IMG/VR virus record: IMGVR_UViG_3300045391_002568
Location: 2,044 to 66,043 of that record
Direction: 5' to 3' (one strand)
Length of the DNA stretch: 64,000 nucleotides
Source of the DNA: a virus
Taxonomy: Duplodnaviria > Caudoviricetes
The notes under the pieces were generated by a model. It made no database searches. It was not told the origin of the DNA and saw nothing but the letters and a program-made list of their open reading frames with translations. Positions 12,809 through 59,397 of the stretch are shown one piece after another. The stretch's first letter is position 1. Every line of letters begins with the position of its first letter. The translations under genes were made by a program, and so were the position numbers.

Positions 12809-12809
12809 A

Positions 12810-13559: not shown

Positions 13560-13566
13560 CAGGCAA

Positions 13567-13603: not shown

Positions 13604-13633
13604 GCGCAAGTTCTTCCGGGGTCAGAGCATACC

Positions 13634-16886: not shown

Positions 16887-16933
16887 CGGTGTCGTCTCCT
16901 ACGGTCGTTTGTTGTTCGTGTGTCAGCAGAGGA

Positions 16934-17119
16934 TCAGTCGAGCACTCCGGGGGCCGGCAGGCCCCGCTCGGTGTAACAATCGGTGATGGCCTGATCGGTC
17001 AGTTCACTGGCGCGCGCGCAGGCCAGCGCGGCAGCTTGCGCATCCTGCTGGCGGCTGACGCATCCAGTCAGCGCCACCACCAGCAGGCACGCAGGCAGGA
17101 CAGCGAGCGGCCGGCGCAT
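16934..17119 (-). CDS. Small lipoprotein
   Basis: MRRPLAVLPACLLVVALTG-C lipobox; two further Cys. Confidence 0.7.
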   Translation of the reverse strand: MRRPLAVLPACLLVVALTGCVSRQQDAQAAALACARASELTDQAITDCYTERGLPAPGVLD

Positions 17120-30226: not shown

Positions 30227-30235
30227 GAGATCGCC

Positions 30236-30592
30236 ATGACCGCCGAAGACATCAAGGTCATCCTGAACTATCCCGGCATCCTGTACGTGCTCATGGTCCT
30301 CGGCTCGCTATTGAGCATGGGAATGCAGCTGCGCGACGCGCGCAAGAATGGCGCGACCATCCCTATTGCAGAATATTTCCTTCGGCTCGAAACCGTTCTG
30401 GCCATTGGCGCCAACACCATCGCATTTCTGGCGCTGATCGTTACCGACTCCCTCAACTTCGTCGGCGCAATCAGTATCGGGTACGCACTGAACAACCTAG
30501 CCGACTCCAAGTCGGGCGGTCGCACCGCTGCCATCGTGGACAGCATTCCGGACAGCAATACGCAGGTGCAGAAGCCCGTCCAGCAGGAGTAG
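30236..30592 (+). CDS. Putative holin
   Basis: Multiple hydrophobic segments in 118 aa, next to the putative endolysin. Confidence 0.6.
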   Translation: MTAEDIKVILNYPGILYVLMVLGSLLSMGMQLRDARKNGATIPIAEYFLRLETVLAIGANTIAFLALIVTDSLNFVGAISIGYALNNLADSKSGGRTAAIVDSIPDSNTQVQKPVQQE

Positions 30593-30641
30593 GCTTGCAG
30601 CAGCCGGTTTTTTGATCGACAACCACAAGCCTGGAGGACAC

Positions 30642-31112
30642 ATGAAACGTCTGATGATGATTCCGATGCTGGCGCTGATGGTGGGCATGGCCGCATGCTC
30701 CGGATGCGCTTCCACGAACCCGCTTTCTGCCGCTGATGGTATCGACGAGCGCGGATATGCCGTGATGGGCATGTACAACGCCTTCCAGAAAGAAGTTCTG
30801 AAGGTGGCGCTCGATGAATCCCTGCCCGCGAACGTGCGCCTCGCCGCTGCTGACGCCGACAAGGCTGCGGTGGATGTCATCGGGGAGCTCTCTTCGGCGC
30901 TCGCCCTGTATCAGGAGGTGCAGCTGGCGCTGGCGGTCGGTGATACGCCGCAGGAGGACCTCGCGGCCGTGATTGCGCACCTTACGAGCTGGGTCGAGCA
31001 GGGGCAAAAGGTCGTGACGGGCCTGAAACGCGCCGTCGAGGATGCTGCGCGGCTGAAGAAAAAGACCGCCAGTACCGCGACCCCCTTCCACTTCGCACAC
31101 GGAGCGGCCTAA
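30642..31112 (+). CDS. Lipoprotein (possible spanin component)
   Basis: MKRLMMIPMLALMVGMAAC/SGC lipobox-like; helical body; GGAGG RBS. Confidence 0.65.
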   Translation: MKRLMMIPMLALMVGMAACSGCASTNPLSAADGIDERGYAVMGMYNAFQKEVLKVALDESLPANVRLAAADADKAAVDVIGELSSALALYQEVQLALAVGDTPQEDLAAVIAHLTSWVEQGQKVVTGLKRAVEDAARLKKKTASTATPFHFAHGAA

Positions 31113-31115
31113 GCC

Positions 31116-31439
31116 ATGTCCCTCATCAGCACCATTTCCCTGATCGCGGCCGCTCTGCGCCAGCTGGCCGTCCTCGTTCCGATCTTCGTCCGCGACGAGA
31201 AGGTCGATGACATCAGCAAGCTCCTGAACACGCTGGCCAATCTCGGCGAGCGCGGTGCGGAAGCGGTCGAGTCGGTTCGCGCCGACCTCGAAGCCCTCGT
31301 GGAGAAGCTCAATTCCATGCATGGCGTCAGCGTCGAGGACCGCGAGGCACTGATCGGCGAGATCCGCGAACGCAGCCAGCGCATTCAGGATGCGGTTGCG
31401 CACCTGAGACCCGAAACCGAAGCGGGGCCGTCCGACTGA
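31116..31439 (+). CDS. Helical protein with hydrophobic N-terminus (possible spanin partner)
   Basis: MSLISTISLIAAALRQLAVLVPIFV followed by coiled coil. Confidence 0.55.
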   Translation: MSLISTISLIAAALRQLAVLVPIFVRDEKVDDISKLLNTLANLGERGAEAVESVRADLEALVEKLNSMHGVSVEDREALIGEIRERSQRIQDAVAHLRPETEAGPSD

Positions 31440-35216: not shown

Positions 35217-36683
35217 ATGCCTACCCAATACTTTTCAGGCAGAGGCCCGAGCCGGGTTCCTCTCAAGGGACAGATAACCTTTCGCGCGACGGAAGACGGC
35301 GCGTGCCTGGTGAATGATCTTCAGGTGATGCTCAACGGGGCGCCATTCACCTTCGATCCGGAGCTGACGAAACTCAAGTCGAGCAGCGGACAGTGGTATT
35401 CGAGCATCCCGAACGAGGCCACGTTCTCCGTGTCGATGAGCAACTACAACGACACGATAGTCGAGACCATGACTATCGATATCACCGGTTCATTCGGCAT
35501 CACGGGCGGCAACATCGACGACGAGCCTGACTTCCCGGGAGAGATCCTGACCGGAACCTTCTCCTTCGATCGCAAGGAGGACGATGGCAACGGCTCGATA
35601 CTATTCTCGCTCGCCGATCAGGAATACGGCCGCGTGGAGACGGACGGCCGCTATTGGAACTGCACTAAGGATCAGATCCAGATATCGATGACCGCGGCGA
35701 ACCTCGGGGATCTGCCGCTGACATTCTTCAGTCGCAGCACCGACTCAAACAGGTTCCTGACGAAGGTCGGGCTCGATTATGACGGAGGCCTATACGACGA
35801 CATCCATTTCACTCCGGCGCCAACCATTCCCCCGTATCCGACCGGGGTCCTTCTGGATGGATGGCGTGCGCGCGATGCCACGGCCGGAAGCCTCACGCTG
35901 CATGGCATAGAGTCGTCGATGCGGATCAACTCCCTGAAGGTGGTGACCGCATTCCTCGGTGGAGCCGAGTACAACCCCTATGTCGAGGTGACCGTAGGCG
36001 GTGTGACTTACGAGCTAAACGCGTCCGTCGATTCAGCGCCGGAGAACAAGGTCGGGACGTGGACACTTCCGCCAGTGGTGGACGGGAAGATCGTCATCGA
36101 CTGGGTGCCATCGTTCCCAGGGAACTCTCAGTTCTGCTTCATGGCGCTCGATCTTTCGTACACGATCATCGGGCCGTACCTTGTTTCTGTGAATGACTCG
36201 CTTCCGATCGGCAAGGGGAGTTCGGGGGTTCCTTTCCAGGGCAGAAACCTCAAGACAATGACCAGTGCCACCATAGATGGGGTCGCCCAAAGCCTCACCA
36301 ATGTGGGCCATTGGGATGTGCGCTTCACGCTGAATCGCGCCACGCTTAACTATGGTCCGCACACCATGCAGGTAAGCGATGGGAGCACTGGCAGCTCTGC
36401 CGAGGCGATCCTTGCTCCGCAGGATGGGTGGCTGCACACCACCATCGGCGCTGCGCTATTCGCAGATATTGGCCTGAGAGTCTCGGCAACGCCGGAGCTC
36501 GAGGAGGACGATCAGGTTGCCTACTCCACCGAGGATGACAAGTTGCTGGTCAATCCGGATGGCAGCTTCGTGTACTACGGCGCGATGCCCGCGGATATTC
36601 CGGCAGAGGTGTGGAGCGATGGGGACTGGACCGAGGGGGAGATTCTTCTCGGCGCCGGCAGTGGAAACGAGGATCTGACATGA
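35217..36683 (+). CDS. Putative virion structural protein (beta-rich)
   Basis: ORF track; T/S/G/D-rich composition in the tail module. Confidence 0.6.
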   Translation: MPTQYFSGRGPSRVPLKGQITFRATEDGACLVNDLQVMLNGAPFTFDPELTKLKSSSGQWYSSIPNEATFSVSMSNYNDTIVETMTIDITGSFGITGGNIDDEPDFPGEILTGTFSFDRKEDDGNGSILFSLADQEYGRVETDGRYWNCTKDQIQISMTAANLGDLPLTFFSRSTDSNRFLTKVGLDYDGGLYDDIHFTPAPTIPPYPTGVLLDGWRARDATAGSLTLHGIESSMRINSLKVVTAFLGGAEYNPYVEVTVGGVTYELNASVDSAPENKVGTWTLPPVVDGKIVIDWVPSFPGNSQFCFMALDLSYTIIGPYLVSVNDSLPIGKGSSGVPFQGRNLKTMTSATIDGVAQSLTNVGHWDVRFTLNRATLNYGPHTMQVSDGSTGSSAEAILAPQDGWLHTTIGAALFADIGLRVSATPELEEDDQVAYSTEDDKLLVNPDGSFVYYGAMPADIPAEVWSDGDWTEGEILLGAGSGNEDLT

Positions 36684-38584
36684 CGATCAAGGTGCTTTCA
36701 GCGATTCGCAAGCAGCTGAACTACCAGGCGAACGGCTGGCGCAGCAAGGAGGTGCCGGACGTTTCGAGCGTGCCGCGCATCCTGTATTGCGTGAGCGACC
36801 ACTGCCCGCCGGCAGATGGGTTGCTTGGCAACGACGGCTCGACAATCGAGGCCGCTCCGGTTGGAAGCGAGGCTGTCTACGGCGGCTACATGAGCGTGTT
36901 CGGCATCAACTTCGGCACGAATCAGAACGGCATCCGCGTTCGCAATCACACCGACGAATCTGATCCCGGGACCGATATCGTGACTCTCGGCGGCCGGATC
37001 ATTGACCTTGGGCCGTGCAATGGACGCCCGGACGTGCAAGTCGTCCATTTTCAGGTCGGGACGAGCGTTACGGGATTCTTCTCCGTGGAGACCGTGAACG
37101 GGACCTCCAACAAGCTCGCGTGGACTGCGCAGCCGGGCCGCATCCTGTACGTCAGCAACAATGACGCGAACGGCTACCCGCTGGGCAATGACTCCACCGC
37201 GCTCATTAATGACTCTGCGCACCCGTGGCGCTATGTGCAGCAACCGCTGAACGCCGGCGCTGACATCTTCAATGATGTCGTGCAGCCCGGAGATCAGGTT
37301 GTCCTACTTCCGACCAGCGAGGGCACGGAATGGAATGACACCGGCTATGCCAATCATTTCTTCCGCGTGCGCCTGAATGGCTTCGTCAGCGGCACCGAGC
37401 CCACCGGCGATCCGGGCGATGGCTACGTGCAGCTGCTGGGATACCCGAGCACGCGCAAGCGCGCGCACATCATTGCAACGGCGGGATTCCGTGGGTGCAT
37501 CGGCGGTCACAGTGACGAGGGCGATGTGCATGTGGGCGGCATTCGTTTCGTCATCGGGAATCTGACCGCAACCTGCCCCGGCGGAGCCGCGGTGAAGTTC
37601 GGAGGCCCTGCCAACCTTGCGGTAGGGGCCGACTACTGGCGCGTGGTGAACAACATCTTCGGAGACTGGGATGCGGAGTGGAGGTCGATCACGGCTGATG
37701 GATCGGGCTCATCGAAGCAGGGCGGGATATCCGGCAACGGCCGGCATCTGTACGTCGTCGGTAACCAGGTACGGAACATCGGCGGCGGCCAGCTCAATCA
37801 CGGCGTCTATTTCGACGACGACTCGCAATACGGAAAGCTAGCCTACAACTGGATCCATAAGGTCTACGGCGGCAACCTGGTGCAGTTCAATGCAAACGCC
37901 GGCGTTACTGACATCCTCGAGTGGGACGTGCACTCGAATCTCCTGGGCAATGGATTTCGGCATGGGTTCAACATCGCGGCGCTGTGCCAGAAGATGCGCT
38001 TCTGGAACAACATCGTCTACAACACCTCCGGCGCCGGCGTGCGCTGGGCCGACACCCCTTCTGGCGATGGGAGCTGGTTTCGCTACAACACCCTGGCGAA
38101 CTGCGGCCTGGCAGGCATCAATGTCCCGTACAACGGCGCGTGCATCATGCTCGACTCGAATGTGCCTGTCGGCAGGGAGATCGACATTTCCGACAACCTG
38201 CTTGTCGGCAGCAATCAGAGCACGGCGTATATCTGGACCGCCGGCGAGACTTACGACGGCCTGACGGTCGACGGGAACCACTACCACGGGGCCGGGGACC
38301 CGCCCGCGATCGACCTGAACGCCGGCTCCGGGGATCCGCTGTTCACCAACACGACGAGCTTCATCACGCAGCGCACCGCGATTGCGCTCGATGACGTGCC
38401 GCGCGCGCTGGCTGCGCCAATTCGCGCCGGAGGAAGGACAGTAGACCTCACGCTCTTGCTGGGCTCACCATGCGACGGTGCTGGCGGAACCGCCGTGCCT
38501 CCTGATGATGATTTCCACATCTTCAAGGACCGGCCATCGCCGCCCTCCATCGGCGCGATGGAAGTTCTTTTCACTGAGGGGTAG
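36680..38584 (+). CDS. IPT/TIG plus right-handed beta-helix protein (putative depolymerase/receptor-binding protein)
   Basis: ATGA overlap; SVFGINFG, repeated NN/NI-type beta-helix turns, C-terminal L.L..GSPC.GAG...SIGAME; paralogue of 53594..55537. Confidence 0.65.
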   Translation: MTIKVLSAIRKQLNYQANGWRSKEVPDVSSVPRILYCVSDHCPPADGLLGNDGSTIEAAPVGSEAVYGGYMSVFGINFGTNQNGIRVRNHTDESDPGTDIVTLGGRIIDLGPCNGRPDVQVVHFQVGTSVTGFFSVETVNGTSNKLAWTAQPGRILYVSNNDANGYPLGNDSTALINDSAHPWRYVQQPLNAGADIFNDVVQPGDQVVLLPTSEGTEWNDTGYANHFFRVRLNGFVSGTEPTGDPGDGYVQLLGYPSTRKRAHIIATAGFRGCIGGHSDEGDVHVGGIRFVIGNLTATCPGGAAVKFGGPANLAVGADYWRVVNNIFGDWDAEWRSITADGSGSSKQGGISGNGRHLYVVGNQVRNIGGGQLNHGVYFDDDSQYGKLAYNWIHKVYGGNLVQFNANAGVTDILEWDVHSNLLGNGFRHGFNIAALCQKMRFWNNIVYNTSGAGVRWADTPSGDGSWFRYNTLANCGLAGINVPYNGACIMLDSNVPVGREIDISDNLLVGSNQSTAYIWTAGETYDGLTVDGNHYHGAGDPPAIDLNAGSGDPLFTNTTSFITQRTAIALDDVPRALAAPIRAGGRTVDLTLLLGSPCDGAGGTAVPPDDDFHIFKDRPSPPSIGAMEVLFTEG

Positions 38585-44200: not shown

Positions 44201-47200
44201 GACGCGCGCTTTCACGGCGGATGAGTTCAAGGACTGGCTGGCCAATGGGGACCACACCAAGCCAGCGAGCACGTTTCGACCCAGTAAAAACCCAGTAAAA
44301 ACCCCGTCAGAGCCCGGCGCCGCCGCCCAGGAGCAGCGGCCGCAGGCCGGAGCGCCGGAACTCAATGCGAATGGGGTGTACCCGCGCGACGCCGGCGAGA
44401 CCATCAGCATGCCTACCGGCAAAGGCCGGCCGAAGTCGGAGCATTCGGTGCAGGTGGTGGAGACGCCGCAGGGCTGGGTCTTCGGCATGCAGTCCTTCTT
44501 CAACATCGGTGATATGTCGGGCACGTCGCATGGCGCCTCGGCCACCCATGGCGGCAAGAGCGCGACGCGCGAGGAAGCGCTGCGCAAGGGGCTCGAGCAG
44601 ATCCTGAAGCACGCCACCAGCGTCGCAACCGGGCCCATTCACAGCCCGCGCAATGAGGCGCAGGTGGCCGAGGCGAAGCGCGTCATGGAGTGGGCGCAGC
44701 AGCAGATCAATGCCATACAGAAAAACCCACCGCCGGCTCCCGCGACCGCGCGTAATGCGCCTCCCGCGAGCAGAAACACGATTTTTACCGAGGACGCGGC
44801 GGCCAAGGCTCGCGCCATCCTAAAGTCGAAGCTCGGACAGGTGAGTAGCGGCTTGGATCCGGAGTTGATGCAGGCCGGCATCACGCTGGCCGGCTATCAC
44901 ATCGAGCGCGGCGCGCGCACGTTCGCCGCCTATTCCAAGGCGATGATCGAGGACCTTGGCGAGGCGGTGAAGCCGTACCTGCGCAGTTGGTACGAGGCTG
45001 TAAGGTGGGATCCGCGCGCGACCGCCATCGCGGCGGACATGACCGGAGCCACAGAGATCGATCAGGAGGCCGCGCCGCGCGCCCAAGAAGCAAGCAGTTC
45101 GCAGCAAGATACCGGCTCTTCCGAGCAGAATCCTGAAAATGACGATCAGGAGGCGGCCGCTGCGGCGCGCGCGCCGGAGGGGCTCGAGCAGTTCGTTCTG
45201 CGCGAACTGCGATCTGGCGAGCAGATCTCCAAGCGCAACCTTGAGCGCTACAGCGGGATCTCCGGCAAGGAGCTCGAGGAGGCCATCGAGCTGGCCATCG
45301 TCATGCGCGCGCGCGAGATAGTGGCCTCAAGGCAGTCCCCGGAGGACACCTTCATGGCGCTGCAGCGGCTGTACAACCAGCAGCCGAACCTCTCCACGCG
45401 CACCAGCACCAGCGTCGAGCAGCAGGCCTACAGCACGCCGGCGCCGCTGGCCTACCTCGCCAGCAGGCTCGCCGACATCGGCCGCCACGACACCGTGCTG
45501 GAGCCCACGGCGGGCAACGGCATGCTCCTGATCGAGGCGACGCCGCGACTGGCCGTGGTCAATGAGCTGAATCCGGATCGATGGAAGGCGCTGCGAAAGC
45601 AGGGCTTCAAAGTGGACAGCAGCGACGCCACGACATGGACGCCGTCGCGATCTGGGTCGGTCAACGTGGTGATTGCCAATCCACCATTCGGTACGGTTCG
45701 GCTGCCAAGCGGCATCACCAGATCCTTCGCGGCGCCGCTGCCAGACGGCAAGATCTTCCAGACCAACGAAATAGACCACGCGATCAGCATGCGTGCATTG
45801 CAGCACATGCACCCGAATGGTCGCGCGGTGCTGATCATCGGCTCGGTCAACAAGCAGGCCAAGGGAGTGGCCCGATCGGACGCCTACAACGGCGCGGCGA
45901 AGCGCCAGTTCTTCTATCACCTGTACCAGCATTACAACGTCACCGACCACTTCACGGTGGACGGCAAGCTGTATGCGAAGCAGGGCGCGGCCTGGCCGGT
46001 GGATGTCATTGTCATAGAGGGTCGCGGTAGGAGCTCGAGGGCCCTGCCCGCGGCGGATGTCCCGAGGGTGTACGATTCATGGGAGGCCTTGCGAGGCCTC
46101 ATATCCGGAGAGTCCGATGAACGCGCAGCAAATGATCGCGTGGGCGCCGAGCAGGAAGCTGGCCGTGGTGGTGACGCTGGGGTCGATACTGACCAGCAGC
46201 AAGACGAAGCTGGATCGGGAGATATATCTCTCGGAACTGAGCAACCGGCTCCAGAAGCTGCTGGAGAGCCAGCCGGACCCGAAGCTGTCACTGGTGAGGA
46301 TGGAGGGCCTGCTGGAGGAGGCCGGCCTGTGGGAGGGCGAAACGCCACCACTGGAAGAGGCAGCGAGCAGGCTGATACTGAGCAATCCCCTGGTATGGGA
46401 TCGCCTGGAACAGCACGGGCTGGAACTGAACGATCTGCCGCCGAATCCGGACGAGACGCCGGAAGCGAGGCTGCAGATCAGGGCGGACCTGCAGGATCCA
46501 GTGAGCGCGCTCGAGAACTGGCTGGGGCAGTTGACAGCGCAGCCCTAGCCGGGCACCAGGTTCCCTACAATCCGGCATCCAGCGTTCCTGCGATCGGGAC
46601 GCTGGTGCCGACGAACATGCGCAACGCAACCGCGAACGCGCTGGCCGCGCTCGAGGCGCGCGTCGGGAAGCTCGAATCCTACGTGGCGCAGCAGCTGGGA
46701 TGGGAAGAGTCCGACGTAGGCAGGTACCTCGGCGCTGAGCAGGTAGACGGCGTGGCGCTGGCGCTGGACCAGATCAGCCAGAACAAGGCGCTGGTGATTG
46801 GCGACCAGACCGGCGTAGGCAAGGGCCGGCAAGTCGCGTCGGCCATCCGGTTCGCGCTGCGGCAGGGACTTATTCCGATCTTCGTCACCGAGAAGCCGAA
46901 TCTCTACTCGGACATCTATCGGGATCTTGTCGACATCGGCCAGGAGGACATCCGGCCGCTGGTGACCAACTCGGGATTGAAACTTCCGCTCGACGACAAC
47001 GAAACGGTGTTCCTCACCACGGCCAGCGGCAACGTCCACGAAAGGACCCTTGCGTCTGCGCGCGACACCGGTGATCTCGGTGATTTTAATATGGTGTTCA
47101 CCACCTACAACCAGATGCAGACGGTCAAGGGAAATCCCACGACGCGCATGGGGATGCTCGGCGCGCTTGGACCCCGGGCGATGCTGATTCTGGATGAGGC

Positions 47201-50200
47201 GCACAACGCTGGCGGCCAGCAAGTCAGCCGGCGCGGCGCGGCGGACCCTGATGCGACCCCCGAGAAGGAGGGGCGTGCGGGATTCGTGCGCGATCTGGTG
47301 AATGCGGCGCGCGCGGTTGTATACAGCTCCGCCACCTGGGCGAAGCGCCCGGACGTAATGGACCTCTACAGCAAGACCGATATGTCTCTTGCGGTGGATA
47401 AAATTTCAGATCTTCCGGCGGCGATCGCGCGCGGCGGCGTGCCCCTGCAGCAAGCGGTAGCCGCAATGCTGGCCAAGGCTGGTCAGTACATCCGGCGTGA
47501 GAAGTCTTTCGACGGCATCGAGTACAACACACCGGTGGTTCCGGTTGATCTGGAGGCGGCAGAATCCCTGAGCGCCGTGATGCTTGCGGTCCGCGAGTTC
47601 GACACCGCCAAGGCGGGAGCCGTTGCGGCCCTGAAGGAAGAGGCGAAGGCGGCCGCGCGCCTGGTCAGCGAGACCAACTCCACCGGTGGAGCTGGCGCGC
47701 AGTCCACGAACTTCACGTCAGTGATGCACAACCTGATTGACCAGATGCTGTTGGCACTGAAGGCCGAAGCCGCAGTGAAGCGCGCCATCGAGCGCAAGGC
47801 TGAAGGCAAGAAGGTCACCATCACGGTCTCCAACACGATGGGCAGCTTCATAGGCGAGTACGCCAGCGAGGCGGGACTGAAGCCTGGCGACAAAATAGCC
47901 CTGTCGTTCGCCGACCTGATGATGCGCTACCTCGAGAAATCACGAGAAGTGCTGATCAAGGGGCCGGATGGCGCCACAACGCGCCGCCGCCTGACAGATG
48001 GTGAGCTCGGCGGCCACGGACTTAGTAAGTACAACGCGGCAGTGAAGCTGATCAAGTCGTCCGACAAGATCGGCAGGCTGCCGGTGAGCCCGATCGATTA
48101 TATGCACGCGAAGTTGCAGGCCGCGGGCATCAAGACTGCCGAGATCACCGGCCGCAGCCAAATGATCGATTACACCGGGGCCTTCCCAGTGTACCGCTTG
48201 CGACCGGCAGCTGAGATCAAGCCGGAGGGCAGGAAGCGCACGATCAACGCGTTCAACTCCGGCGTGATCGACATGCTGATCCTGAACCAGGCAGGCGCCA
48301 CCGGCCTGTCGCTGCATGCGAGCAAGAAGTTCAAGGACCAGTCGCGGCGCTGGATGGTGCTGGCGCAGGCCGAGAAGAACATCGACACCCACATGCAGAT
48401 GCTTGGGCGCATCAATCGCACAGGCCAGGTGCAGACGCCGGGCTACGACCAGCTGACCGCTGATATTCCTGCGGAGAAGCGGCCGGCAGCGGTGCTCGCC
48501 AAGAAGATGGCAAGCCTCAACGCAAACACCACTGCATCGCGCGATTCGGCCGTCACGTCGAAGGAGACTGTCGACTTCCTCAACCTGTACGGCGATGAAG
48601 TGGTTGCGCAGCTGATGGAGGACATGCCCGACATTCACGAGAAGCTCGGCGAGCCGCTGGATCCTTCCAGCACTGGAGAGGGCTATGAACGAGAAGATGC
48701 CGCCCGCAAGGTCAGCGGCCGCATCCCGCTGCTTCCTGTAGCCGAGCAGGAGGCGCTGTACGAGCTCATTGAGAGCGGATACAAGGCCGCGCTGGAACAG
48801 GCCGATGCCATGGGAGAAAACGCGCTAGAGGCGAAGACGATGGATCTGGACGCGCGAACCACCGCGCGCACCCCGCTTTTCGAGGGCAAGAGCGGGTCGT
48901 CGTCACCTTTCGCTCAGGGCGCGTGGCTTGAGGAAGCGAACGTGAAACGGCTCGGCAAGCCGTATACGTCCGAGCAGGTGCGCAGCATGGTGGCCGACTC
49001 GCTCGGCGTCGATTCCGGCGCGAAGTGGGATCAGCTGCGTCGCGCCGGCGCCGACAACACTGACAGCCGCGGGCGGGATGTGGGCAAGGAGGCGGCATCA
49101 TTCCGTGACGGCCTGAGCGCCAAGTTGCTGATCATGGACATCAAGGAGTCCGAGAAGCAGGGGCGTCTCCAGCAGTTTGAGGGCCTCGTGACGCGCTGGG
49201 TGGATATCAGTCATCGACTGATGGTCGGGTCTGCGTACCGGCTCTCTTCTGGCGATAACGTAATCTATGGCGTGCTTCTGAAGGTGACCCGCAAAAAGGG
49301 CGTGAAGCTGCCGGTCGCCTTGGGCTCATGGGAAGCGCACTTCGCCCTGGCTGACGCGAGCCGGCACATTACGCTGCCCTTCAGCCGTCTTGCGGCGAGC
49401 GCCGGTGGGCTCGGAGAGATCGGCAAGATTGCGTTCCGAGTCGCAGATCGCACTGACCTCACTGAAAAGCCGATCCTACAGGCCTTCGATGAAGGGCAAC
49501 TGCAGTCCCGCGAGGACCGCATCATCGTCACCGGAAACTTGCTGGCCGGCTTTGCCAAAGTGAAGGGCGGAGCGATCGTCAACTACACGACCAGCCAGGG
49601 CGAGGTGCGGCAGGGAATCCTCATGCCGCGCAACTTCGACATCGAGGAATTCTCGAAAGAGCAGCCCGTGGAGCTCACGGCGGAGCAGGTGATTCCGTTC
49701 TTCCGCGAGGCGCCGAAGGGCATCATCGAGAACGCATCCGGGGCGCTGACGGTGCGGCGCGCTGGCGGTGACTACTTCCTGTCAGTGCCGAAATCGAAGG
49801 CCGACGGCGGCAAGTTCTTCCTCGATCGTGTGCTAACGAATATCACCCGCGATTTCTCAAGTCGCGGCGATCGCATGATCGCAACTATCAGCAGCGCGGA
49901 GTTGCTGCCGGCCCTGCAGTACCTGCAGCGCAATGGCGAAAAGTTCCAGACCAAGAGTTTCTCGCTCGAGGCGCGCGCGGTTGGCGGAAAGCAGCTCGCA
50001 GGTGGCGATCGCGCAGAGATCTCCAATGACCTGGCGCCCATGGCGAGCGCTCCGAAGGGCTGGAGGTCAGTGGAGGCAATGCCACGCACCGATGGCGTGA
50101 AGAATGGCCTGGCCATCAGAAAGGCGCTCGACGCGAAGTTTGGGGCCAGCGCCATTCAGGCGCTGATCGACAAGGGCTTGCTGCGCATCGTTGCCGGGTT

Positions 50201-53200
50201 CGAGAACCTGCCGCAGGACATGCGGAACAACATCATCCAGCGAATCGGCAACAAAGGCCGCGCGGCCAATGCCTGGATGAACCCCAAGACGGGCACCTCC
50301 TACATCATCGGCGAGAACGCGACGCCGGACCACGCCCCTTCCATCCTGCTGCATGAGATCGGCGAGCACTATGGGCTGCGCAAGTTGCTCGGCGAGGACG
50401 CCTATCACCGCCTCCACCGCGACCTGGTGAACCTGAACGGCAAGGACCCGGCCGTTACCGCGGCGTGGAGTGCCGTCAAAGCAGCATACGGCCATGAGGT
50501 GGAAGGCAGCGAGCGGTTCCTCAAGGAGGTTACCGCGCACCTGGCCAATGACCAGTCGGTGCTCGACGCGCCGTGGTTCAAGCGCGTGGTGTGGGCTGTG
50601 CGGAGATTCCTGTACCAGCTCGGCTGGACATTCGCCTTCAAGATCGACGCCAACGATATCCGCGGAATGCTCGCCGCTAGCCTCGGAAAGGCCATCGAGG
50701 ATGCGAAGGCTGCAGCTCCCGCAGCGTCCACGGCAAGGGCCTCAACCGCCGAAGCACCGCTGGCCAGCCTCGACACTGGGAGCAGGGACCCGGCCGACAC
50801 CACGAGGCAATTCGTCCGCGAAAGCATCTTCCGGATGCCAGTCGATCGGGTATTCCGGACCCTTGTCATGAGTCCGATGGGGCGATTCCAGAACGGCAAG
50901 TTCGTTCCGTGGGAACCGGTTGATGCCGCCGTGAAGTCCGTACTCGCAAGCGCCAAGCGCATGTCCAGCGGCGCATTCGACTGGCTGCACCCCTCCATAC
51001 AGAGCGCAGCAAACAACAGCGTTCAGTGGCTGAAGAACGCGTTCGTTGATCGCGCCGGCACGCCGGAAGAATTCAAGACGCGCGAGGCGCAGAAGGAGGG
51101 CGAGATTCGATCCTCGCTGCGCAACATCCAGGAGCTCGGCGCGAAGCTTATGGAGAGCGTCACCGACGAGAACGAGAAGCTGGCCCTGCAGCAGGTGATG
51201 ACTGGCGAAGAAATCGGGGACGAGCAGGTAAAGGCCATCGCCGCGCCGTTCATCGATGCGATCGAGGACATGGGAAGGCAACTGGCCGAGCTCGGCTTCC
51301 TCACCCGCGAGACTTGGGAAAAGAATCGCCGCAAGTACCTGCACCGCAGTTACCTGCGCCACGAGACGGCGTTTGCGGGCGCCCTGACGCGCCGCATAGA
51401 CGATATGGTCTCGAGGAGAGCGGCCAACCGCCGCGTGCGAATCATCGGGGACGCATTCCGCGGCCGAGGAATGTTCCAGAAGGTCTCAATTGACGCCCTG
51501 AAGAAGGGCGCCGGGAGCGAATTCTGGGGCCGCAGATTCGACCCCGAGACCTCCATCGATGTGAACCTGAAGAACACCGAATGGACGATCCTCGACAAGG
51601 TAATCGCGCGCGAGGTGGATGAGCAGCGCCAGCTGCTGCCCGGATCTTCCGGTCGCGCCGATCGCAAGGTGCGCCGCATCTACTGGCCGGCCGACGAGCC
51701 GATCCCGAATCGATACGCCGGGTGGGAGAATCGCGGGACGTTCCGCGTGCGCGACGTGGGCAAGGGCGAAGTGACTCTGCACCGCGACTATACGAAGCAG
51801 GAACGGCTGCGCATGGGGGAGATCCTCGACGCGCGCTACAACATCGTGAAAACGATGTCGCTGATGAGCAGGGACCTCGCTACCGGAAAGTTCTTCAAGG
51901 ACATCGCCGCGAATCCGGAGTGGGCGCGCACGGAGGAGCCGAGAAACGCCGACGGCTCGCCGGCCTGGGTCTATGCCGCTGAGTCAACGTGGAACAGGAC
52001 GATACACCGCACGCCGGAATGGGTCAGAGTTCCCATGTCGAAGGTCGGCGGGGAGAAGGGCCCGTACCGGTACGGGCAGCTCGCCGGCAAGTACGTGCAG
52101 GGCGCGATCTGGCGCGACATAGCCGAGCAGGAGGCATTCATGACGCCGGGCGTGTGGCGCACGCTCCTGAAGGCGTGGAAGATCTCAAAGACCGCCCTCT
52201 CCCCGGTCGTGCACGTCAACAACATCGTCTCGAACTTCTTCCTGATGGATCTGCAGGATGTGTCCCTTGCTGACCTGAAGGATGGCTTCGTGAGTCGGTT
52301 CGGAAGGGACCAGGACTACAAGGACGCGCTGGATCACGGGCTGTTCGGCAGCAGCGCACTGGACAAGGAGATCAGCGACGAGATCCTGATTCCTATTCTC
52401 AACGAAATCCGCGAAGCGAACTTCGTCGGCCCCACGGCGCGCATAAAGATGGTCACGAAAATCGTCGACGCCATCTGGGGGGCCGGAAAGCTGACCATCG
52501 ACAAGGCGACCCTCGTCTATCAGCTCGAGGACGAGGTTTTCCGCATGGCGACTTACAAGAAGTTGCTCGCCGATGGAGTTCCGGCCTTCGAGGCGGCGCA
52601 GCGCGCGCGCCGCGCATTCATCGACTACGACATCAGGGCGCCAGGCATCAACGCACTTCGCCGGACCGTCGTTCCGTTCATTTCGTACACCTATCGCGCC
52701 ATCCCATTGGTGGCCGGGGCGGTGGCGAAGCGGCCGTGGAAGCTGGCGAAGTATTACGCGATCGCCTACGCGCTCCAGAGCCTCGCTTACTGGTGGATGG
52801 ACGAGGACGATGACGATAAGGAGGCCTATCAGCGCCTGATGGACGAGCAGTACCAGGGAAATGTCTGGCTGGGCGTCCCGCGCATGATGCGCATGCCGTT
52901 CGACGACAAATACGGCAACCCGATGTTTCTGGACATCAGGCGGTGGATTCCTGCCGGCGACGTTTTCGAGACCGGCGAGGCGATCGAGTGGATGCCGTCC
53001 TGGTTGCAGATTGGCGGACCCCTACTGATGGGCATCGAGGTTGGGCTGAACGTCGATACGTTCAAGGACAGCCAGATATACAACCGCCGCACCGACACGG
53101 CCGGCGAGAAGATCTCCAAGTCCGCGGCCTTCCTGTGGCGCGGGATGGCGCCTAACGTCGCGCTGGTCCCGGGCTCGTATGCGAACCAAAACCTCATGTC

Positions 53201-53513
53201 AGCATGGCGTAGCAATCAAGAGGACTTCAATTTTGCCGGCGAGAAGAAGTCTCTCGGGCAAGCCGTCGCCGGAGGTCTCGGCGTGAAGATGCGCCCCCTG
53301 AGCCTCGAGGGAAGGAAGGGCGAGATTCAGGCCCAGTACGAGTCGATTATCTCGGATCTGCGGCGCCAGCTCGCCGCGCTGCGCACCCAAACGTCCCGCG
53401 GCAAGATGTCAGAGGAAGAGTACCTGCAGAATGCTGGCATCATCGAAATGAAGATCTCGGACGCCGAAGAGAAGATGCGCCGCAAGCTGTACGGCGACCG
53501 CCAGCCGCAGTGA
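41208..53513 (+). CDS. Giant DarB-like polyvalent protein (4101 aa): inorganic-pyrophosphatase-like domain, N6 DNA methyltransferase, strawberry-notch-type SF2 helicase, HExxxH metallopeptidase-like domain, LPD38-like C-terminus
   Basis: AGNYQKGH...ISIENPKG...[17 protein letters not shown]...[10 protein letters not shown] (~43.8-44.2 kb); [16 protein letters not shown] (~45.4-46.0 kb); [40 protein letters not shown] (~46.7-48.5 kb); [10 protein letters not shown] (~50.35 kb). Confidence 0.88.
43372..43674 (+). CDS. Two tandem candidate overprinted ORFs (+1 frame): 43372-43464 (30 aa, basic) and 43465-43674 (69 aa)
   Basis: GGAG then GTG 43372; [30 protein letters not shown] immediately followed by GTG; CTG/AAG/GAG/CAG codons dominate the +1 frame. 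Confidence 0.35.
46117..46548 (+). CDS. Candidate overprinted gene (+1 frame, 143 aa, Leu/Glu-rich helical)
   Basis: GGAGAG RBS before ATG 46117; GC-ending codons in the +1 frame, while the host frame becomes A/T-ending and low-complexity. Confidence 0.55.
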
Positions 53514-53593: not shown

Positions 53594-55537
53594 ATGCGCA
53601 TCAGGGTTCTTAATCGCAGGATATTTCTCGGTATCGGCGCCACCAGCCTGCTGGCAGCTTCCGTCGCGCGCGCGCTCGGCGTCATTTCCATCGCCGGCGC
53701 CGGCAACAAATATTACGCCGCCGCTCCAGGTGGCGGGGGCGGCGGGTCCAGCAGCATCCTGATGCTGTACACGGACATCACGGCGGGCCCCACGACAGGT
53801 GGCGAGAACAACAAGGGCACCTACATTTCGGTGTTCGGAATCGGCCTCGGATCGTTCAGCGACTGGGGCGTCAGCAAGAAGCTGATGATCGGCGGCGTTG
53901 AGGTGGATAACTACCGCTGCCTGCAGAATGCAACCGGTCAGGGATCCGGAGGTCCTGGCCGCGGCGTCTACGAAACGTGGGGCATCCAGCGCATCGTGGC
54001 GCAGGTGGGCGCGCTGGGCTCGCCCACTGCTGGCACCGCGCTGGCCATCGACATCGTCGACGGCTCTGGTACCTCGCTGCTGCTGAATACTGTCGTGTCC
54101 GGCAAGGCGCGCGATCTCGACGGCGCTGATATCACGTTCACACCGCAGCCTGGCGCCATCATTTTCGTGGCCCCGGCCGGCAGCGGTGGCAGCGATGCGA
54201 ACCCCGGCACGATTGCTTCGCCGAAGCTGTCGCTCCAGACCACCGGCGGCGCCGGCGTATTCACGGTGCACAGCGGCGCCAATACGACGGACGGCATCAA
54301 GCCAGGCACGCACGTCATCCTGCGCGGCGGCAGTCACACGGTCACCGGCCGCAACAGCCGCATGGTGGATCTGTTTCGGATTACCGGGACAGCTCCCACC
54401 GGCGCCAGCGATCGCGGGCCGATCGTTGTGACGGCATACCCGGGCGCAGCGGGCGCGGACTCTCCTGAGACTGCCGTCATGTCCTGCCAGACCGGCATCG
54501 GTGGCTGCTGGAACGGCAACGATTCGACGCGCGCCACCGAGGTGAGCACGAGTTACGGTGGGTTCACTGGCTGGTGCCAGTACATCCACATCTGCAACCT
54601 GACGATGATCTCGAGTCCAACGTCGCAGAACGATGGTGGACCGGTCAATTTCCAGAACGCCGCCAAGAACTGGCGCGTGATCAACAACAACATCACCTGG
54701 CAGAACACCGTCACCGGCGTGAACCACCCGCGCGCGGCCGGCATCGTCGGCAATGGCAACGGCTGCGCAGTGCACGGCAACTATGTGCACGACATTTACG
54801 GCGACACATCCGCCAACGAGAACCACGGCATCTACTTCGATGGCGGCGCTGCGCCGACCGTCAACATGCGGGTGTCGTTCTGCTGCATCTACAACATTTC
54901 CGGCGGCAACGGCTATCAGTCGTACGACGCAAACTCGACCGGCTCGACGGGCAACATCGTCCATCACCTGTGGATCGAAACCTACAACAAGAACGGCCTG
55001 AACATCGCCGACCAGACCATCAGCCTGCAGGCCTACAACATCGTGATCGTCGACGGCGGGGAGAGTCCGATCCGCTTCAACACCGCAGATGTCGCGGCCG
55101 CAAACGGCATCGACATCTGGAATATCACCGCCTATGGGTGGGGTCGCGTGGCGTCAAACCGCGGCGCGGTGCAGGATGACTGGTCGATCGGGGCTGGCAG
55201 CGTCCGGATCCGAAACAGTATCTTCATGCAGAAGGCGTCGCACTCGGCCAACAGCTATTCGTTCACGAATCTGAACACGCCGGCGAAGTTCACGATGAAC
55301 AATAACCGCTACTACGACCCGGACGGTCGGCTGACCACGAAGCCTTCTGAGGACTCCAACGGCACCGTGGGAACGCCTGGATTCACTGATATTTCGACCC
55401 GCGACTTCTCGCTCGCCAACGGCAGCGCGTGCATCAACGCCGGCACGGCGCCAGCCTCCCGCGCCTATGGCTTCCTGCTGAATGCGGCGCCGCAGGGAGC
55501 ATCGCACGACATCGGCGCCTACGAGAGGGACACGTAA
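53594..55537 (+). CDS. Tat-signal IPT/TIG plus beta-helix protein (putative polysaccharide-binding/depolymerase)
   Basis: NRRIFLG twin-arginine motif, h-region, ARA cleavage site; YISVFGIGLG; beta-helix turns; DFSLANGSACINAG...DIGAYE. Confidence 0.7.
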   Translation: MRIRVLNRRIFLGIGATSLLAASVARALGVISIAGAGNKYYAAAPGGGGGGSSSILMLYTDITAGPTTGGENNKGTYISVFGIGLGSFSDWGVSKKLMIGGVEVDNYRCLQNATGQGSGGPGRGVYETWGIQRIVAQVGALGSPTAGTALAIDIVDGSGTSLLLNTVVSGKARDLDGADITFTPQPGAIIFVAPAGSGGSDANPGTIASPKLSLQTTGGAGVFTVHSGANTTDGIKPGTHVILRGGSHTVTGRNSRMVDLFRITGTAPTGASDRGPIVVTAYPGAAGADSPETAVMSCQTGIGGCWNGNDSTRATEVSTSYGGFTGWCQYIHICNLTMISSPTSQNDGGPVNFQNAAKNWRVINNNITWQNTVTGVNHPRAAGIVGNGNGCAVHGNYVHDIYGDTSANENHGIYFDGGAAPTVNMRVSFCCIYNISGGNGYQSYDANSTGSTGNIVHHLWIETYNKNGLNIADQTISLQAYNIVIVDGGESPIRFNTADVAAANGIDIWNITAYGWGRVASNRGAVQDDWSIGAGSVRIRNSIFMQKASHSANSYSFTNLNTPAKFTMNNNRYYDPDGRLTTKPSEDSNGTVGTPGFTDISTRDFSLANGSACINAGTAPASRAYGFLLNAAPQGASHDIGAYERDT

Positions 55538-56682
55538 TGAAGCTGCTGCGCGCGCTTCCGCTCCTGCTGCTGGCCTGCCTGCCTGATATCTCAAGGGCCG
55601 CCATTTCTGTCTCTGTCGGTGGCAACGCCGCGGCTGCAGGCTCCGCATCGAGCCTCGCTGTAGCCTCGGTGGTCGAGGCCTCCGGGGATCGCATCGTCCA
55701 CGCGTGCCGCTGGAGAAACGCGACCGCCACCGCCACGGTCTCTGACGGCACCAACACCTTCAATCAGATCGGTTCGTATTCCGACAACGGCTCGGACCGT
55801 TACGCCTGGTGGGAATCCATCAATGTCACCGCCGGCACTCGCACGATCACGACAACCTTCAGCGCGGCGGCCACATTCCGCTACTGCGTCTCGCTGAAGG
55901 TCAGCGGCAGCGACTCAAACGCCTCGCAGGCCAGCACCTTGGTGAGCAATCTGGCCGGAAACTGGACCAACGCGACCGACAACGCCACGTCCGGCAACAT
56001 GACGCCCACTGCGCAGCCGAACGCGATCATCGGTGTCATCGGGACGATCTACAACGCGCGCACCATCAGCGCCGGAACAGGTTTCACGAGCCTTGGGGCG
56101 CTGGCGAACTGGGACACTGCGAACGGCGACACGTCGCTGGCGGAATGGCGCCGCACGACATCCACGTCAGCCGCGGCCGCCACTTTCACGTTGAGCGGCG
56201 CGGAAGGCGGATTCATCTGGGGCCTCGTGGTCGGCGAGGCGGCCGCAACGCCTGCAACCCTGTCGTCAGCCACGCCAAGCGGAACGATTGGCACGTCAAC
56301 GTCAGCCACCGTGGGGGCTACGACGGACCAGTCCAGCGGGACGCTCTACGCGGTCCTGAGCACGTCGAACAATGTCTCGACGGCAACCGCCAGCCAGGTG
56401 AAGGCTGGTCAGAACAGCACGGGCGCGGCAGCGAGCTTCTCCGGCAGCAACACCGTGTCGACCACAACTCCGAGCGTGACGATCGGTAGCCTTTCGGCCG
56501 CGACGCTGTACTACTACGCCGAGGTGCAGAACAACACCAATGGCGACTCGAACGTCGTCAGCGGCTCCTTCACGACGGCCGCCGCATCCTCAATCGTCCC
56601 GAAGATCATGCAGCAGGCTCGGCTACTGCCAGCCAACGACCCAAATTTTGACGCGCCCCTTGTGGCGGGAGTTGTGAAATGA
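55537..56682 (+). CDS. Signal-peptide-bearing S/T/A-rich fibre-like protein with FN3/Ig-like domain
   Basis: TAATG coupling; MKLLRALPLLLLACLPDISRA; TTDQSSGTLYAV...QVKAGQ...GSL...TLYYY...SFTT. Confidence 0.7.
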   Translation: MKLLRALPLLLLACLPDISRAAISVSVGGNAAAAGSASSLAVASVVEASGDRIVHACRWRNATATATVSDGTNTFNQIGSYSDNGSDRYAWWESINVTAGTRTITTTFSAAATFRYCVSLKVSGSDSNASQASTLVSNLAGNWTNATDNATSGNMTPTAQPNAIIGVIGTIYNARTISAGTGFTSLGALANWDTANGDTSLAEWRRTTSTSAAAATFTLSGAEGGFIWGLVVGEAAATPATLSSATPSGTIGTSTSATVGATTDQSSGTLYAVLSTSNNVSTATASQVKAGQNSTGAAASFSGSNTVSTTTPSVTIGSLSAATLYYYAEVQNNTNGDSNVVSGSFTTAAASSIVPKIMQQARLLPANDPNFDAPLVAGVVK

Positions 56683-58622
56683 AGCGAAACAACCTGATTG
56701 CACTGGTTTGTGTCGCGGCGCTCGCCGCCGTCACGTCATACCCGTCGCTCGCCAACACCTGCCCCACATTGCGGGCTGGTGCAACGAGCCAGACGATCAA
56801 CGTCACGTTCATCGACAACACGACCGGATTGCCGGCTTCTGGGTTGGCCTTCAACTCCAGCGGCATGGACATCAACTACACCCGCCCAGGTGCGGCACAG
56901 ACCGCCGTAACCGAGGCGACACAAACCGCCGCCGGTGCGTGGTCGTCCGGCGGGTTCGTCTCCAACGGCCAGGGCACGTATCGCTTCGACATTCCCAATG
57001 CTGCGATAGCAACCGGCGTCCCGTATGTGGTCGTCACTGGCGTTGCGACCGGCTACACCATGCTTCCCTGCACGGTGCAGCTGACCGCGGTGGACCTGCA
57101 GGACTCGGTGCGCGCCGGCATGACTGCGCTGCCGAATGCTGCCGCCGAGGCAGCGGGTGGTCTGTACACCCGAGGCAGCGGCGCCGGCCAGATCGCCCAG
57201 GATGCCAACGGTCGCATCAGCGTGAATAACGTGGCGTTCGGCGGAGTCGCCGGCACGTATTCTGGCGGCCGCCCCGAGGTCAATACGACGCATTGGGCTG
57301 GTACCGCGGTCGGCAGCGCCACGGTGCGCGCCGACTTGATCAACATCGGCGGCGCTGCGGTGAGCACCTCGACCGCCCAGCTCGGCGTCAATGTCGTGAA
57401 CTTCGGTGGATCGGCTGGCACATTCGCCAGCGGCAGGCCGGAGGTCAAAACCCAGAGCATTACGAACGGGGCCATCACCGAGGCTTCCTTCGACACCACG
57501 GCCGGCAGCTTCAAGCCTTTCGGGATCGTCGACCAGGGTACTGCGCAGTCCGCATCAGGCACGACACTGGTGTTGCGATCGGCGCTAGCCATGGGCGATG
57601 ACACCGCCAATGGCATGACGCTTGTGGCGTGCGGATCCACGCAGGGCTACTGCCAGAGCCGTCTGGTGACGGACTACGTGGGATCCACGGACACCGCCAC
57701 GGTGGACACCTGGACGGTAACCCCCTCCGGAACCATCACGTACTACTTGCTCGGAACGGCTCCGTCGTCTGGCAGCGGCAGCGGCCTTGACGCGGCCGGC
57801 GTCCGCTCGGCGCTCGGCATGTCGTCGGCAAACCTCGACACACAGCTGTCGACGATCGCCGGCTACATCGACACGGAGGTCGGGGCGATCAAGACCAAGA
57901 CGGACTTCCTTCCCTCCGCGACGGCTGGAGCTTCTGGCGGCGTGTTCATCGCCGGCTCGAACGCGGCGACGACCGTGAACTTCACCGGAAACCTCTCGGG
58001 ATCGGTGGGCAGCATCGGAGCTGGTGGCATCACAGCATCGAGCATCGCCACGGACGCCATTGGCGCGGCCGAACTCGCCTCGGATGCCGTCACGGAGATC
58101 CAGTCCGGCCTGGCCACCTCGTCGGCGCTGTCAACCGTGGCTGGGTACGTCGACACCGAGGTTGCGGCCATCAAGTCGGTGACCGACAAGCTGGATACCG
58201 CGCTCGAGTTGGACGGCAGCGTGTACCGCTACACGACGAACGCGCTCGAGCAGGGCCCGGCCGGTGGTGGTGGTGGAACGAACATCACCCAGATTGAGGG
58301 CGTGGATGCGACCGACCAGATCGACGCGCGTATCGCGGCGGCAGCGCTGGCCACGGCCGCGAACCTCGCGTCGCTCAACACCAAGATCGGGACGCCGGCT
58401 GGCGCCAGCGTGAGTGCGGATATCGCGGCTGTGAAGTCGGATACGGCCGCGACGCTGACTGACACCGGCACGACCCTCGATGCGAAGGTCGACGCCATCA
58501 AGGCCAAGACGGACAGCCTGACCTTCACCAAGGCCGGAGAGGTCGACGCCAACGTTCAGAGCATGAACGGCGCCACGGTGCTGGGAGACGGCACGAGCGG
58601 GGACAAGTGGAGGGGCGAGTGA
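56679..58622 (+). CDS. Signal-peptide-bearing fibre-like protein
   Basis: MKRNNLIALVCVAALAAVTSYPSLA; AWSSGGF...G.YRFDIPNAA; repeated IAGY(I/V)DTEVxAIK; ends AIKAKTDSLTFT...GDGTSGDKW. Confidence 0.7.
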   Translation: MKRNNLIALVCVAALAAVTSYPSLANTCPTLRAGATSQTINVTFIDNTTGLPASGLAFNSSGMDINYTRPGAAQTAVTEATQTAAGAWSSGGFVSNGQGTYRFDIPNAAIATGVPYVVVTGVATGYTMLPCTVQLTAVDLQDSVRAGMTALPNAAAEAAGGLYTRGSGAGQIAQDANGRISVNNVAFGGVAGTYSGGRPEVNTTHWAGTAVGSATVRADLINIGGAAVSTSTAQLGVNVVNFGGSAGTFASGRPEVKTQSITNGAITEASFDTTAGSFKPFGIVDQGTAQSASGTTLVLRSALAMGDDTANGMTLVACGSTQGYCQSRLVTDYVGSTDTATVDTWTVTPSGTITYYLLGTAPSSGSGSGLDAAGVRSALGMSSANLDTQLSTIAGYIDTEVGAIKTKTDFLPSATAGASGGVFIAGSNAATTVNFTGNLSGSVGSIGAGGITASSIATDAIGAAELASDAVTEIQSGLATSSALSTVAGYVDTEVAAIKSVTDKLDTALELDGSVYRYTTNALEQGPAGGGGGTNITQIEGVDATDQIDARIAAAALATAANLASLNTKIGTPAGASVSADIAAVKSDTAATLTDTGTTLDAKVDAIKAKTDSLTFTKAGEVDANVQSMNGATVLGDGTSGDKWRGE

Positions 58623-59002
58623 CCCTTCGCCGGGTCATCGCGGCCTCGGCGCTGGCGCTGGCAATGATGCCGGCGCTGGCCAACTTCGACGAGGCAGCGT
58701 TCAGCCAAGGATCCTTCGGGCAGGAGAGCTTCCAGATCGCCGAGCTCGTCATGGTTCCGGATTGCTCCGGCGATGACGAAGCGACATGCGTTGCCACAGT
58801 CGAAGGCGCTGGTTTCACCACCTCCGTGGTGATGGCCTGCAGCAATACCGTTGCAGTCGGGAACGTGATCGGTACCGCGCCGCCCGGCGGGTCCGAGGCG
58901 GAGGCCGGGAGTGCCGTCGTTATCAGGGTCTCGGATGGGACCGAATGCAAAGTGAGCCGCGGCCGTAGAATGGGCGTAGGGCTTGGAATCGGACTGAACT
59001 GA
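58619..59002 (+). CDS. Signal-peptide-bearing PASTA-like domain protein
   Basis: GTGA overlap, GGAGG RBS; MTLRRVIAASALALAMMPALA; VMVPDCSG...A.VEGAGF...SNTVAVGNVIGTAPPGGSEAEAGSAVVIRVS. Confidence 0.7.
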   Translation: MTLRRVIAASALALAMMPALANFDEAAFSQGSFGQESFQIAELVMVPDCSGDDEATCVATVEGAGFTTSVVMACSNTVAVGNVIGTAPPGGSEAEAGSAVVIRVSDGTECKVSRGRRMGVGLGIGLN

Positions 59003-59013
59003 GGGGTACGAAC

Positions 59014-59397
59014 ATGATTCTTTCACGACGCAACCTGATGCGCCTGAACGTCCTGCTGGGCGTGGCGGTGATCGGCATGGTGTTTATGCTGGGCTCCTCG
59101 ATGGGAGCTCGAGGTGCCGCGCAGGATCCTTGGGGCGCAAGCCCGGTTGGATCAGGCGGGCTTGCGGCAATGACAATTGCGGCGCAGCGCGCCGTGGCGG
59201 TGACGCCGAGCAACACCACGGACCTGGCGCTGGTGGCGCGCGCGATCTACAGTCATGACGGTGGCAACGTGGCGTGTCGATTCGCCGATGCGACCTCAGC
59301 GGTGTTTCTGTTCGCTGCCGGAGAGATCAAACCGATTCGGTGCGCGCGCATCCTCTCCACGGGCACCGACTCGACCGCAATCACTGCGCTGTACTAG
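59014..59397 (+). CDS. Head-spike base protein (RcGTA Rcc01079-like) with N-terminal signal/TM
   Basis: AVAVTPSNTTDL...RAIY...GGNVACRF...AGEIKPIR..RILSTGT...ITALY; N-terminal SRRNLM plus hydrophobic stretch. Confidence 0.75.
   Translation: MILSRRNLMRLNVLLGVAVIGMVFMLGSSMGARGAAQDPWGASPVGSGGLAAMTIAAQRAVAVTPSNTTDLALVARAIYSHDGGNVACRFADATSAVFLFAAGEIKPIRCARILSTGTDSTAITALY

Follow-up and report, generated by a model that had tools for sequence, protein, structure and literature searches.

Five consecutive genes at the end of a podovirus-type late operon encode spike- and fibre-type proteins with predicted export signals

We analysed a window of 64,000 nucleotides (IMG/VR virus record IMGVR_UViG_3300045391_002568, positions 2,044 to 66,043), which is nearly all of a 66,043-base record rated complete by CheckV, and focused on the five genes, here termed g1 to g5, that occupy positions 53594-59397 of its + strand. 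They are the last five genes of a podovirus-type late operon, directly following its other genes, and encode a predicted beta-helix protein (g1), a jelly-roll plus FN3 protein (g2), a fibre (g3), a small PASTA protein (g4) and a spike base of the Rcc01079 type (g5) (Table 1). The TAA stop codon of g1 overlaps the ATG of g2 at 55537 (TAATG), g2 and g3 overlap in ATGA and g3 and g4 in GTGA, and 11 nt separate g4 from g5; a GGAG/GAGG-type site lies 5-12 nt 5' of every start. An earlier note on this DNA, made from the letters alone, had described five consecutive and mostly coupled genes, each with a signal-like N-terminus; the open reading frames (ORFs), the overlaps and the ribosome-binding sites (RBSs) are all present, and all five N-termini are flagged by the heuristic described below. 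Since a weak scan found neither a sigma-70-like promoter nor a + strand terminator-like site between g1 and the gene of a giant internal virion protein that precedes it, the cassette is probably part of the late transcript.

Table 1. Genes and predicted N-terminal segments of the cassette, and other features of the window
Feature	Length (aa)	Position	Strand	Basis or remark
g1, predicted beta-helix protein	647	53594..55537	+	ORF and RBS; beta-helix family
g1 signal, Tat type		53594-53674	+	codons 1-27
g2, jelly-roll plus FN3 protein	381	55537..56682	+	AlphaFold2 (AF2) model, pLDDT 85.6; Foldseek
g2 signal, Sec type		55537-55599	+	codons 1-21
g3, fibre	647	56679..58622	+	3482 homologues; AF2 model
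g3 signal, Sec type		56679-56753	+	codons 1-25
g4, PASTA protein	127	58619..59002	+	GTG start, GGAGG 5 nt upstream; Pfam PASTA
g4 signal, Sec type		58619-58681	+	codons 1-21
g5, Rcc01079-type spike base	127	59014..59397	+	Rcc01079-type jelly-roll by phmmer
g5 N-terminal add-on		59014-59118	+	codons 1-35
Beta-helix paralogue of g1		36680..38584	+	tail module; N-terminus MTIKVLSAIRK, without signal
Large terminase		19988	+	late operon
Portal		21752	+	late operon
Major capsid protein		25470		933W/F116 type
Giant internal virion protein	4101	41208-53513	+	late operon
Cluster of small envelope-type genes		29330-31439		inside the structural module
DUF5675 protein		29735-30226		within the cluster
Lipoprotein	156	30642-31112		within the cluster; MKRLMM..., Cys after MAA

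The N-termini of g2, g3 and g4 have the features of Sec/signal peptidase I substrates, namely a basic n-region, a hydrophobic core of 7-15 residues and small residues at -3/-1: MKLLR, a Leu-rich core and a predicted cleavage site SRA|AISVS in g2; MKRNN, a 13-residue core and SLA|NTC in g3; and MTLRR, a core and ALA|NF in g4. In g1, the sequence N-R-R-I-F-L-G, with an exact RR-x-F-L, is followed by a mildly hydrophobic h-region (GATSLLAASV) rich in Gly, Ala and Ser and by A-R-A, an A-x-A site, and thus has the three features of a twin-arginine translocation (Tat) signal. The g5 N-terminus (SRRNLMR, a 21-residue uncharged stretch and ARGA|AQDPWG) is read as Tat-like or as a signal anchor. Signals were called with a crude n/h/c heuristic of our own; a first version failed to pick up g1 and, among about 30 other late-strand ORFs, gave 3 positives, which include a lipoprotein and a membrane protein, and a second version, with an added Tat branch, flags g1 to g5. 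Given that background rate, five signals in a row are not due to chance. Canonical Tat signals recur among related cassettes and homologues, twice in locus L056 and once each in P0042, a member of the g1 family, and P0370, a member of the g5 family.

The predicted signals are precise add-ons, since the predicted cleavage sites of g2, g3 and g5 coincide with, or lie next to, the starts of their signal-less homologues. The closest g2 homologues (P0188-P0190; 61-63% identity) are signal-less and start M-AIS(V/A)S, and the predicted cleavage of g2 leaves AISVS..., which is their start after the Met. Of the 120 best hits in the g3 family, over half have a Sec signal whose A-x-A immediately precedes the conserved N-domain, and the others begin 2-8 residues ahead of this domain; in IMG/VR, only four of the 80 best loci for this family are signal-bearing. 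Most of the 150 listed representatives of the g5 family measure 77-100 aa and about 12 have an N-terminal signal or anchor; exported g5-type members expose the same arm (AQDPWG in g5, ADNWG in P0246), and the signal-less P0249 starts M-ADNWG. The phage homologues of g1, one of them 86% identical, begin with a short hydrophobic peptide and a poly-Gly linker and have no basic n-region; a hydrophobic/Gly peptide (LGVISIAGAG) and then a poly-Gly linker follow the signal in g1, which places its Tat signal ahead of a peptide of the kind with which these homologues start. Distant cellular g1 homologues carry clear Sec, Tat or lipoprotein signals. To the question whether such signals are family-wide or specific to this lineage, the answer is that signal-bearing members form a recurrent minority or a sub-clade in the g1, g2, g3 and g5 families.

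By our heuristic, the genes of a module share one signal state. Immediately upstream of the fibre, the gene is signal-bearing at 8 of 8 loci with a signal-bearing fibre versus 1 of 53 with a signal-less one (Fisher p = 3e-9), and the two genes upstream taken together give 15/16 versus 4/102, all these counts coming from loci that are not phylogenetically independent and from signal calls of our own making. Cysteine content follows the same division. As Dutton and colleagues reportedly found in 2008, exported bacterial proteins tend toward even cysteine counts; here, the mature part has an even count in 94 of 102 signal-bearing versus 65 of 193 signal-less homologues (p = 4e-24), with the same direction in all four families tested. 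Within the window, the mature Sec-type proteins hold 2, 4, 4 and 2 Cys (two in g2, four each in g3 and g4) and the Tat-type g1 holds nine, and four unsignalled virion proteins have 9, 3, 1 and 3. A Tat-type g1 would fold in the cytoplasm, and its odd count stands beside the even counts of the Sec type. A tree of 73 fibre N-domains implies 6 or more switches of signal state, at least 3 of which are forced by supported branches, and parity follows signal state in two or three supported contrasts and almost never the reverse. In their add-on position, the module-wide signal state and the even cysteine counts, the N-termini behave as real export signals, which is how the earlier note had read them, and export itself is, on this sequence evidence, likely.

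Two readings would dispense with export. It is scarcely credible that the starts are mis-assigned, with the proteins beginning downstream and the signal-like stretches left untranslated. An in-frame ATG does occur at codon 56 of g1, at the start of the conserved domain and exactly where the homologue P0059 starts (homologues have Leu or Ile there), and another at codon 53 of g5; however, both have weaker RBSs and their use would leave gaps of 165 and 156 nt, respectively, whereas all five upstream starts have an RBS and overlap the previous stop or, in g5, closely follow it. Furthermore, no start codon lies near the point where signal-less homologues of g2 and g3 begin, and downstream starts are excluded for these two genes because a later start would cut into conserved domains; signal-bearing homologues exist, moreover, in the g1, g2, g3 and g5 families, and signal-bearing PASTA proteins in related cassettes. 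The proviso that true starts might lie downstream therefore falls for g2 and g3, and for g1 and g5 comes down to alternatives with weaker RBSs; internal initiation at codon 56 could in principle yield an unsignalled, cytoplasmic form of g1. The other reading, in which the hydrophobic N-termini serve as docking or membrane-tether peptides and assembly is wholly cytoplasmic, is improbable. It has a model in the head fibre Rcc01080 of the Rhodobacter capsulatus gene transfer agent (RcGTA), which binds the spike base via a hydrophobic N-terminal peptide, IALGLGLGL (PMC7296036), and the short hydrophobic peptides and poly-Gly linkers of the phage g1 homologues speak in its favour. Against it, the segments of the window lie upstream of the starts of signal-less homologues and thus come on top of any docking peptide; basic n-regions and A-x-A sites accompany them, joined in g1 by the exact twin-arginine motif, and cysteine parity tracks them.

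As to the mature parts, the Rcc01079-like base announced by the earlier note is g5, residues 55-123 of which align with residues 13-81 of the 84 of PDB 6tb9, 'Head spike base Rcc01079' (phmmer, E = 1.3e-9). This protein also matches PDB 8cjz, 'Spike Base Protein' (phmmer, E = 8e-5), phrog_12296 (E = 9e-18) and RcapNL gp29; the rcc01079 homologue in RcapNL is annotated 'tail fiber protein' (Hynes et al., PMC5026251). At 127 aa and with its export-type add-on, g5 is longer than the typical base and departs from the small, unsignalled form of the Rcc01079 type. Both g1 and g2 were considered as the Rcc01079-like part and rejected, the 6tb9 match being in g5. The domains that the earlier note had named for the other proteins hold as well: PASTA in g4, FN3 at the C-terminus of g2, a beta-helix through the homologues of g1, and fibre repeats in g3.

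Residues 44-106 of g4 match PASTA (PF03793; E = 1.5e-8, 34.9 bits against a gathering cut-off of 23.2). Peptidoglycan binding in the periplasm, considered as the task of this domain, is weakened by locus L083, where a signal-less PASTA protein is encoded between fibre and scaffold/capsid genes. In the AF2 model of g3, an Ig-like N-domain (about residues 26-140) is followed by repeats modelled with low confidence, by another beta domain (275-360) and by a long coiled coil; Foldseek returned weak Ig-V matches at most, phmmer against PDB found no match, and a search of GenBank phages with the N-domain retrieved only two uncultured records. For g2, the AF2 model shows a jelly-roll/lectin-like beta-sandwich, an FN3 domain and short C-terminal helices, and Foldseek gave FN3 and ephrin-receptor/MAM-type matches; against PDB, phmmer found no match and the g2 profile a weak FN3 match at most. 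Downstream of its linker, g1 has an IPT-like domain from ILMLYTDITAGP, followed by a predicted right-handed beta-helix. Its sole Pfam match, DUF5123, is below the cut-off, and its homologues, matching PF13229/PF17161, are named beta-helix proteins; phmmer against PDB and tblastn against GenBank phages found no match, and a search of viral contigs with g1 alone yielded no related loci. We predict that g1 is a glycan enzyme. The unsignalled beta-helix protein of the tail module, probably a tailspike, is a paralogue of g1 (BLASTP, 25% identity over 456 aa, E = 2e-14).

The cassette recurs elsewhere. In the SU10-like phage of locus L006 and, on another backbone, in L109, genes for an enzyme, a g2-like protein, a fibre, a PASTA protein and a small last protein follow in the same order, and all six cassette genes are signal-bearing at each locus, including the PASTA homologues in the position of g4; the last gene matches the base profile in L109, not in L006. 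The same signal-bearing pattern was seen in L005, L013, L044, L056 and L090, the last with a PASTA-profile match at the position of g4. Just upstream of the all-signal cassette of L006 lies a gene for a 78-aa HTH_8 (Fis-type) protein (L006:6920-7156), which hints that this cassette may have its own regulation. In L111 (5195-6133), a base gene of the Rcc01079 type, with a Sec signal, precedes a fibre gene, the product of which carries FVGVGVGVGVGG, a (VG)5 peptide, immediately after its signal. A scan of genome contigs led to metagenome-assembled genome contigs of many phyla and gave no usable host.

Signal-less relatives occupy other surroundings. In L124 (2079-8749), signal-less g1-, g2- and g3-like genes stand directly upstream of a 79%-identical homologue of the likely tailspike gene, so that in this relative the cassette belongs to the tail module instead of closing the operon. 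Other signal-less relatives lie in a P22-like tail region (L004), between portal and scaffold/capsid genes (L083) and before lysis genes (L007). The earlier description of a head-spike module is supported for g5, the only one of the five with homology to Rcc01079, and possible for g1 to g4; with regard to g1 to g3 as head parts, their signal-less relatives adjoin a tailspike in the tail module of L124 and lie between head genes in other phages.

The closest known system is the head spike of RcGTA, which consists of the base Rcc01079 and the fibre Rcc01080 (PDB 6tb9/6tba/6tsu; PMC7296036, PMC5026251); the N-terminal arm of the base binds the capsid, and the N-terminal peptide of the fibre plugs into the base pentamer (PMC7296036). 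Besides the alignment of g5, the likeness lies in a small base gene clustered with fibre and glycan-binding genes and in the Gly-alternating hydrophobic N-peptide of the L111 fibre, which is like that of Rcc01080. In contrast, Rcc01079 has 84 aa and no signal, and g5 bears an export-type add-on of 35-50 aa; here the partner genes are all signal-bearing and the base gene comes last, and a homologue of Rcc01080 was not detected, capsid binding by g5 being suggested by homology. For g1, the nearest counterpart is WceF of Pantoea stewartii (PMC7949094), a tailspike-type right-handed beta-helix behind a twin-arginine signal, as is predicted for g1, and both probably act on surface polysaccharide. 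However, WceF is encoded on the chromosome in an exopolysaccharide (EPS) locus and not among fibre and spike-base genes of a phage late operon, and g1 had no sequence match to it in the PDB search. Podovirus tailspikes and branched receptor-binding proteins of the P22 gp9 type resemble the cassette in that beta-helix enzyme and fibre genes end the structural operon and in that signal-less relatives of the cassette adjoin the tailspike in L124, but known tailspikes are cytoplasmic, dock via an N-terminal particle-binding domain and have no Sec/Tat signal. Phage late proteins that are exported and are not virion parts include spanins, signal-anchor-release (SAR) endolysins, T4 RI, Lom, Cor and Llp. 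These, too, come from the late region, bear Sec signals, signal anchors or lipoboxes and act in the envelope (for T4 RI as an exported protein, see PMC8385771); unlike the cassette products, they are small proteins that serve lysis or exclusion singly, are not homologues of spike bases, tailspike enzymes or fibres, and form no five-gene module with a coordinated signal state.

Tailed-phage particles are assembled in the cytoplasm. The earlier note knew of no described case of exported virion parts in tailed phages, and a literature search, incomplete in its coverage, likewise found no published Sec- or Tat-exported virion part. We nevertheless tentatively favour periplasmic maturation of the cassette proteins followed by their attachment to particles at lysis, and propose, somewhat more guardedly, that these are outer spike and fibre parts sent out via Sec and Tat, folded with disulfides in the periplasm and added at lysis, by a route repeatedly gained or lost in a mobile cassette of many uncultured phages. 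On this proposal, g1 to g5 would be the exported version of a mobile phage spike/fibre cassette, in which g1 would serve as a glycan enzyme of beta-helix type, g2 combines a lectin-like part with FN3, g3 supplies the coiled-coil fibre, g4 is the small PASTA protein and g5 the base of the Rcc01079 type. The genes would be transcribed with the late operon, as the missing promoter and terminator suggest; g1 would leave folded via Tat, g2 to g4 unfolded via Sec, and g5 via either. Signal peptidase would then remove the add-ons and leave the N-termini used by cytoplasmic homologues, a match that is seen for a cleavage that is predicted. The Sec substrates would form disulfide bonds in the periplasm, as cysteine parity suggests, and the parts would wait there, perhaps assembled on the base pentamer, until lysis joins cytoplasm and periplasm and they can bind particles; before lysis, envelope glycans may be a further target of the enzyme.

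Attachment to particles is favoured because (i) exported cassettes retain a capsid-vertex base together with its N-terminal arm, (ii) cleaved N-termini match those of signal-less homologues, (iii) the (VG)5 peptide of the exported L111 fibre resembles the Rcc01080 plug (PMC7296036), (iv) signal-less relatives sit among structural genes, (v) signal state flips repeatedly in the fibre tree, and (vi) the cassette is not set off from the late operon by a promoter or terminator. Several points weigh against it. Attachment after lysis would have to overcome dilution, and the tail module of this phage already supplies a tailspike-like protein, which is unsignalled. The position of the cassette varies between phages, like that of an accessory module, and in L006 it follows a small helix-turn-helix gene. 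A base of the Rcc01079 type is missing from the neighbourhood of most signal-less g3-type fibres, so that g1 to g4 may sit on either the head or the tail of a particle. The fibre tree offers three supported independent contrasts, in which the parity trend is not significant, and export, cleavage and disulfide formation are all predictions, the signal calls coming from a heuristic of our own instead of SignalP.

It is also possible, if somewhat doubtful, that export is real and the cassette acts outside the particle, in or on the envelope of an infected cell or a lysogen; its products might cut or mask surface or periplasmic polysaccharide and so block superinfection, keep progeny from adhering to debris or loosen capsule or biofilm ahead of release, to name examples. 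Some of the points just raised, namely the separate unsignalled beta-helix retained in the tail module, the moron-like mobility of a cassette placed differently among phages and its position after the HTH_8 gene in L006, speak for this, as do the cytoplasmic assembly of particles and the secreted cellular homologues of g1; WceF is, moreover, a Tat-exported, tailspike-like EPS hydrolase (PMC7949094). However, an envelope role leaves unaccounted for the retention of a capsid-vertex base homologue with its arm in exported cassettes of several lineages and the identity of the post-cleavage N-termini with those of signal-less homologues located in structural modules; no promoter of its own was found in a weak test, and Sec or Tat alone ends at the periplasm in a diderm host.

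The rest of the window gives the setting. The late operon also encodes other internal virion proteins, and 3' of the cassette lie convergent replication genes (RuvC-like resolvase, primase/helicase and methyltransferase). The cluster of small envelope-type genes inside the structural module encodes, in addition to the DUF5675 protein and the lipoprotein, two proteins with a membrane segment, one of 134 aa and one of 107 aa in which the segment is N-terminal; the cluster may serve lysis and include a spanin, which would suggest a diderm host. In the left arm (1-18000), matches to RNase H, a replication initiator, exonucleases and an SbcC-like protein were seen, and no integrase was found among the ten larger ORFs scanned.

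Overall, if outer receptor-binding parts are indeed made in the periplasm and join the virion at lysis, the recognition of virion genes would change, as genes with a signal peptide are usually set down as 'not structural', and so would the view of how host-range modules evolve; the expression of such proteins in phage engineering would need oxidative folding. Should the cassette act in the envelope instead, it would represent a new class of phage accessory module made from virion parts. In both cases, the pairs of homologues with and without a signal are clean natural controls for experiments.

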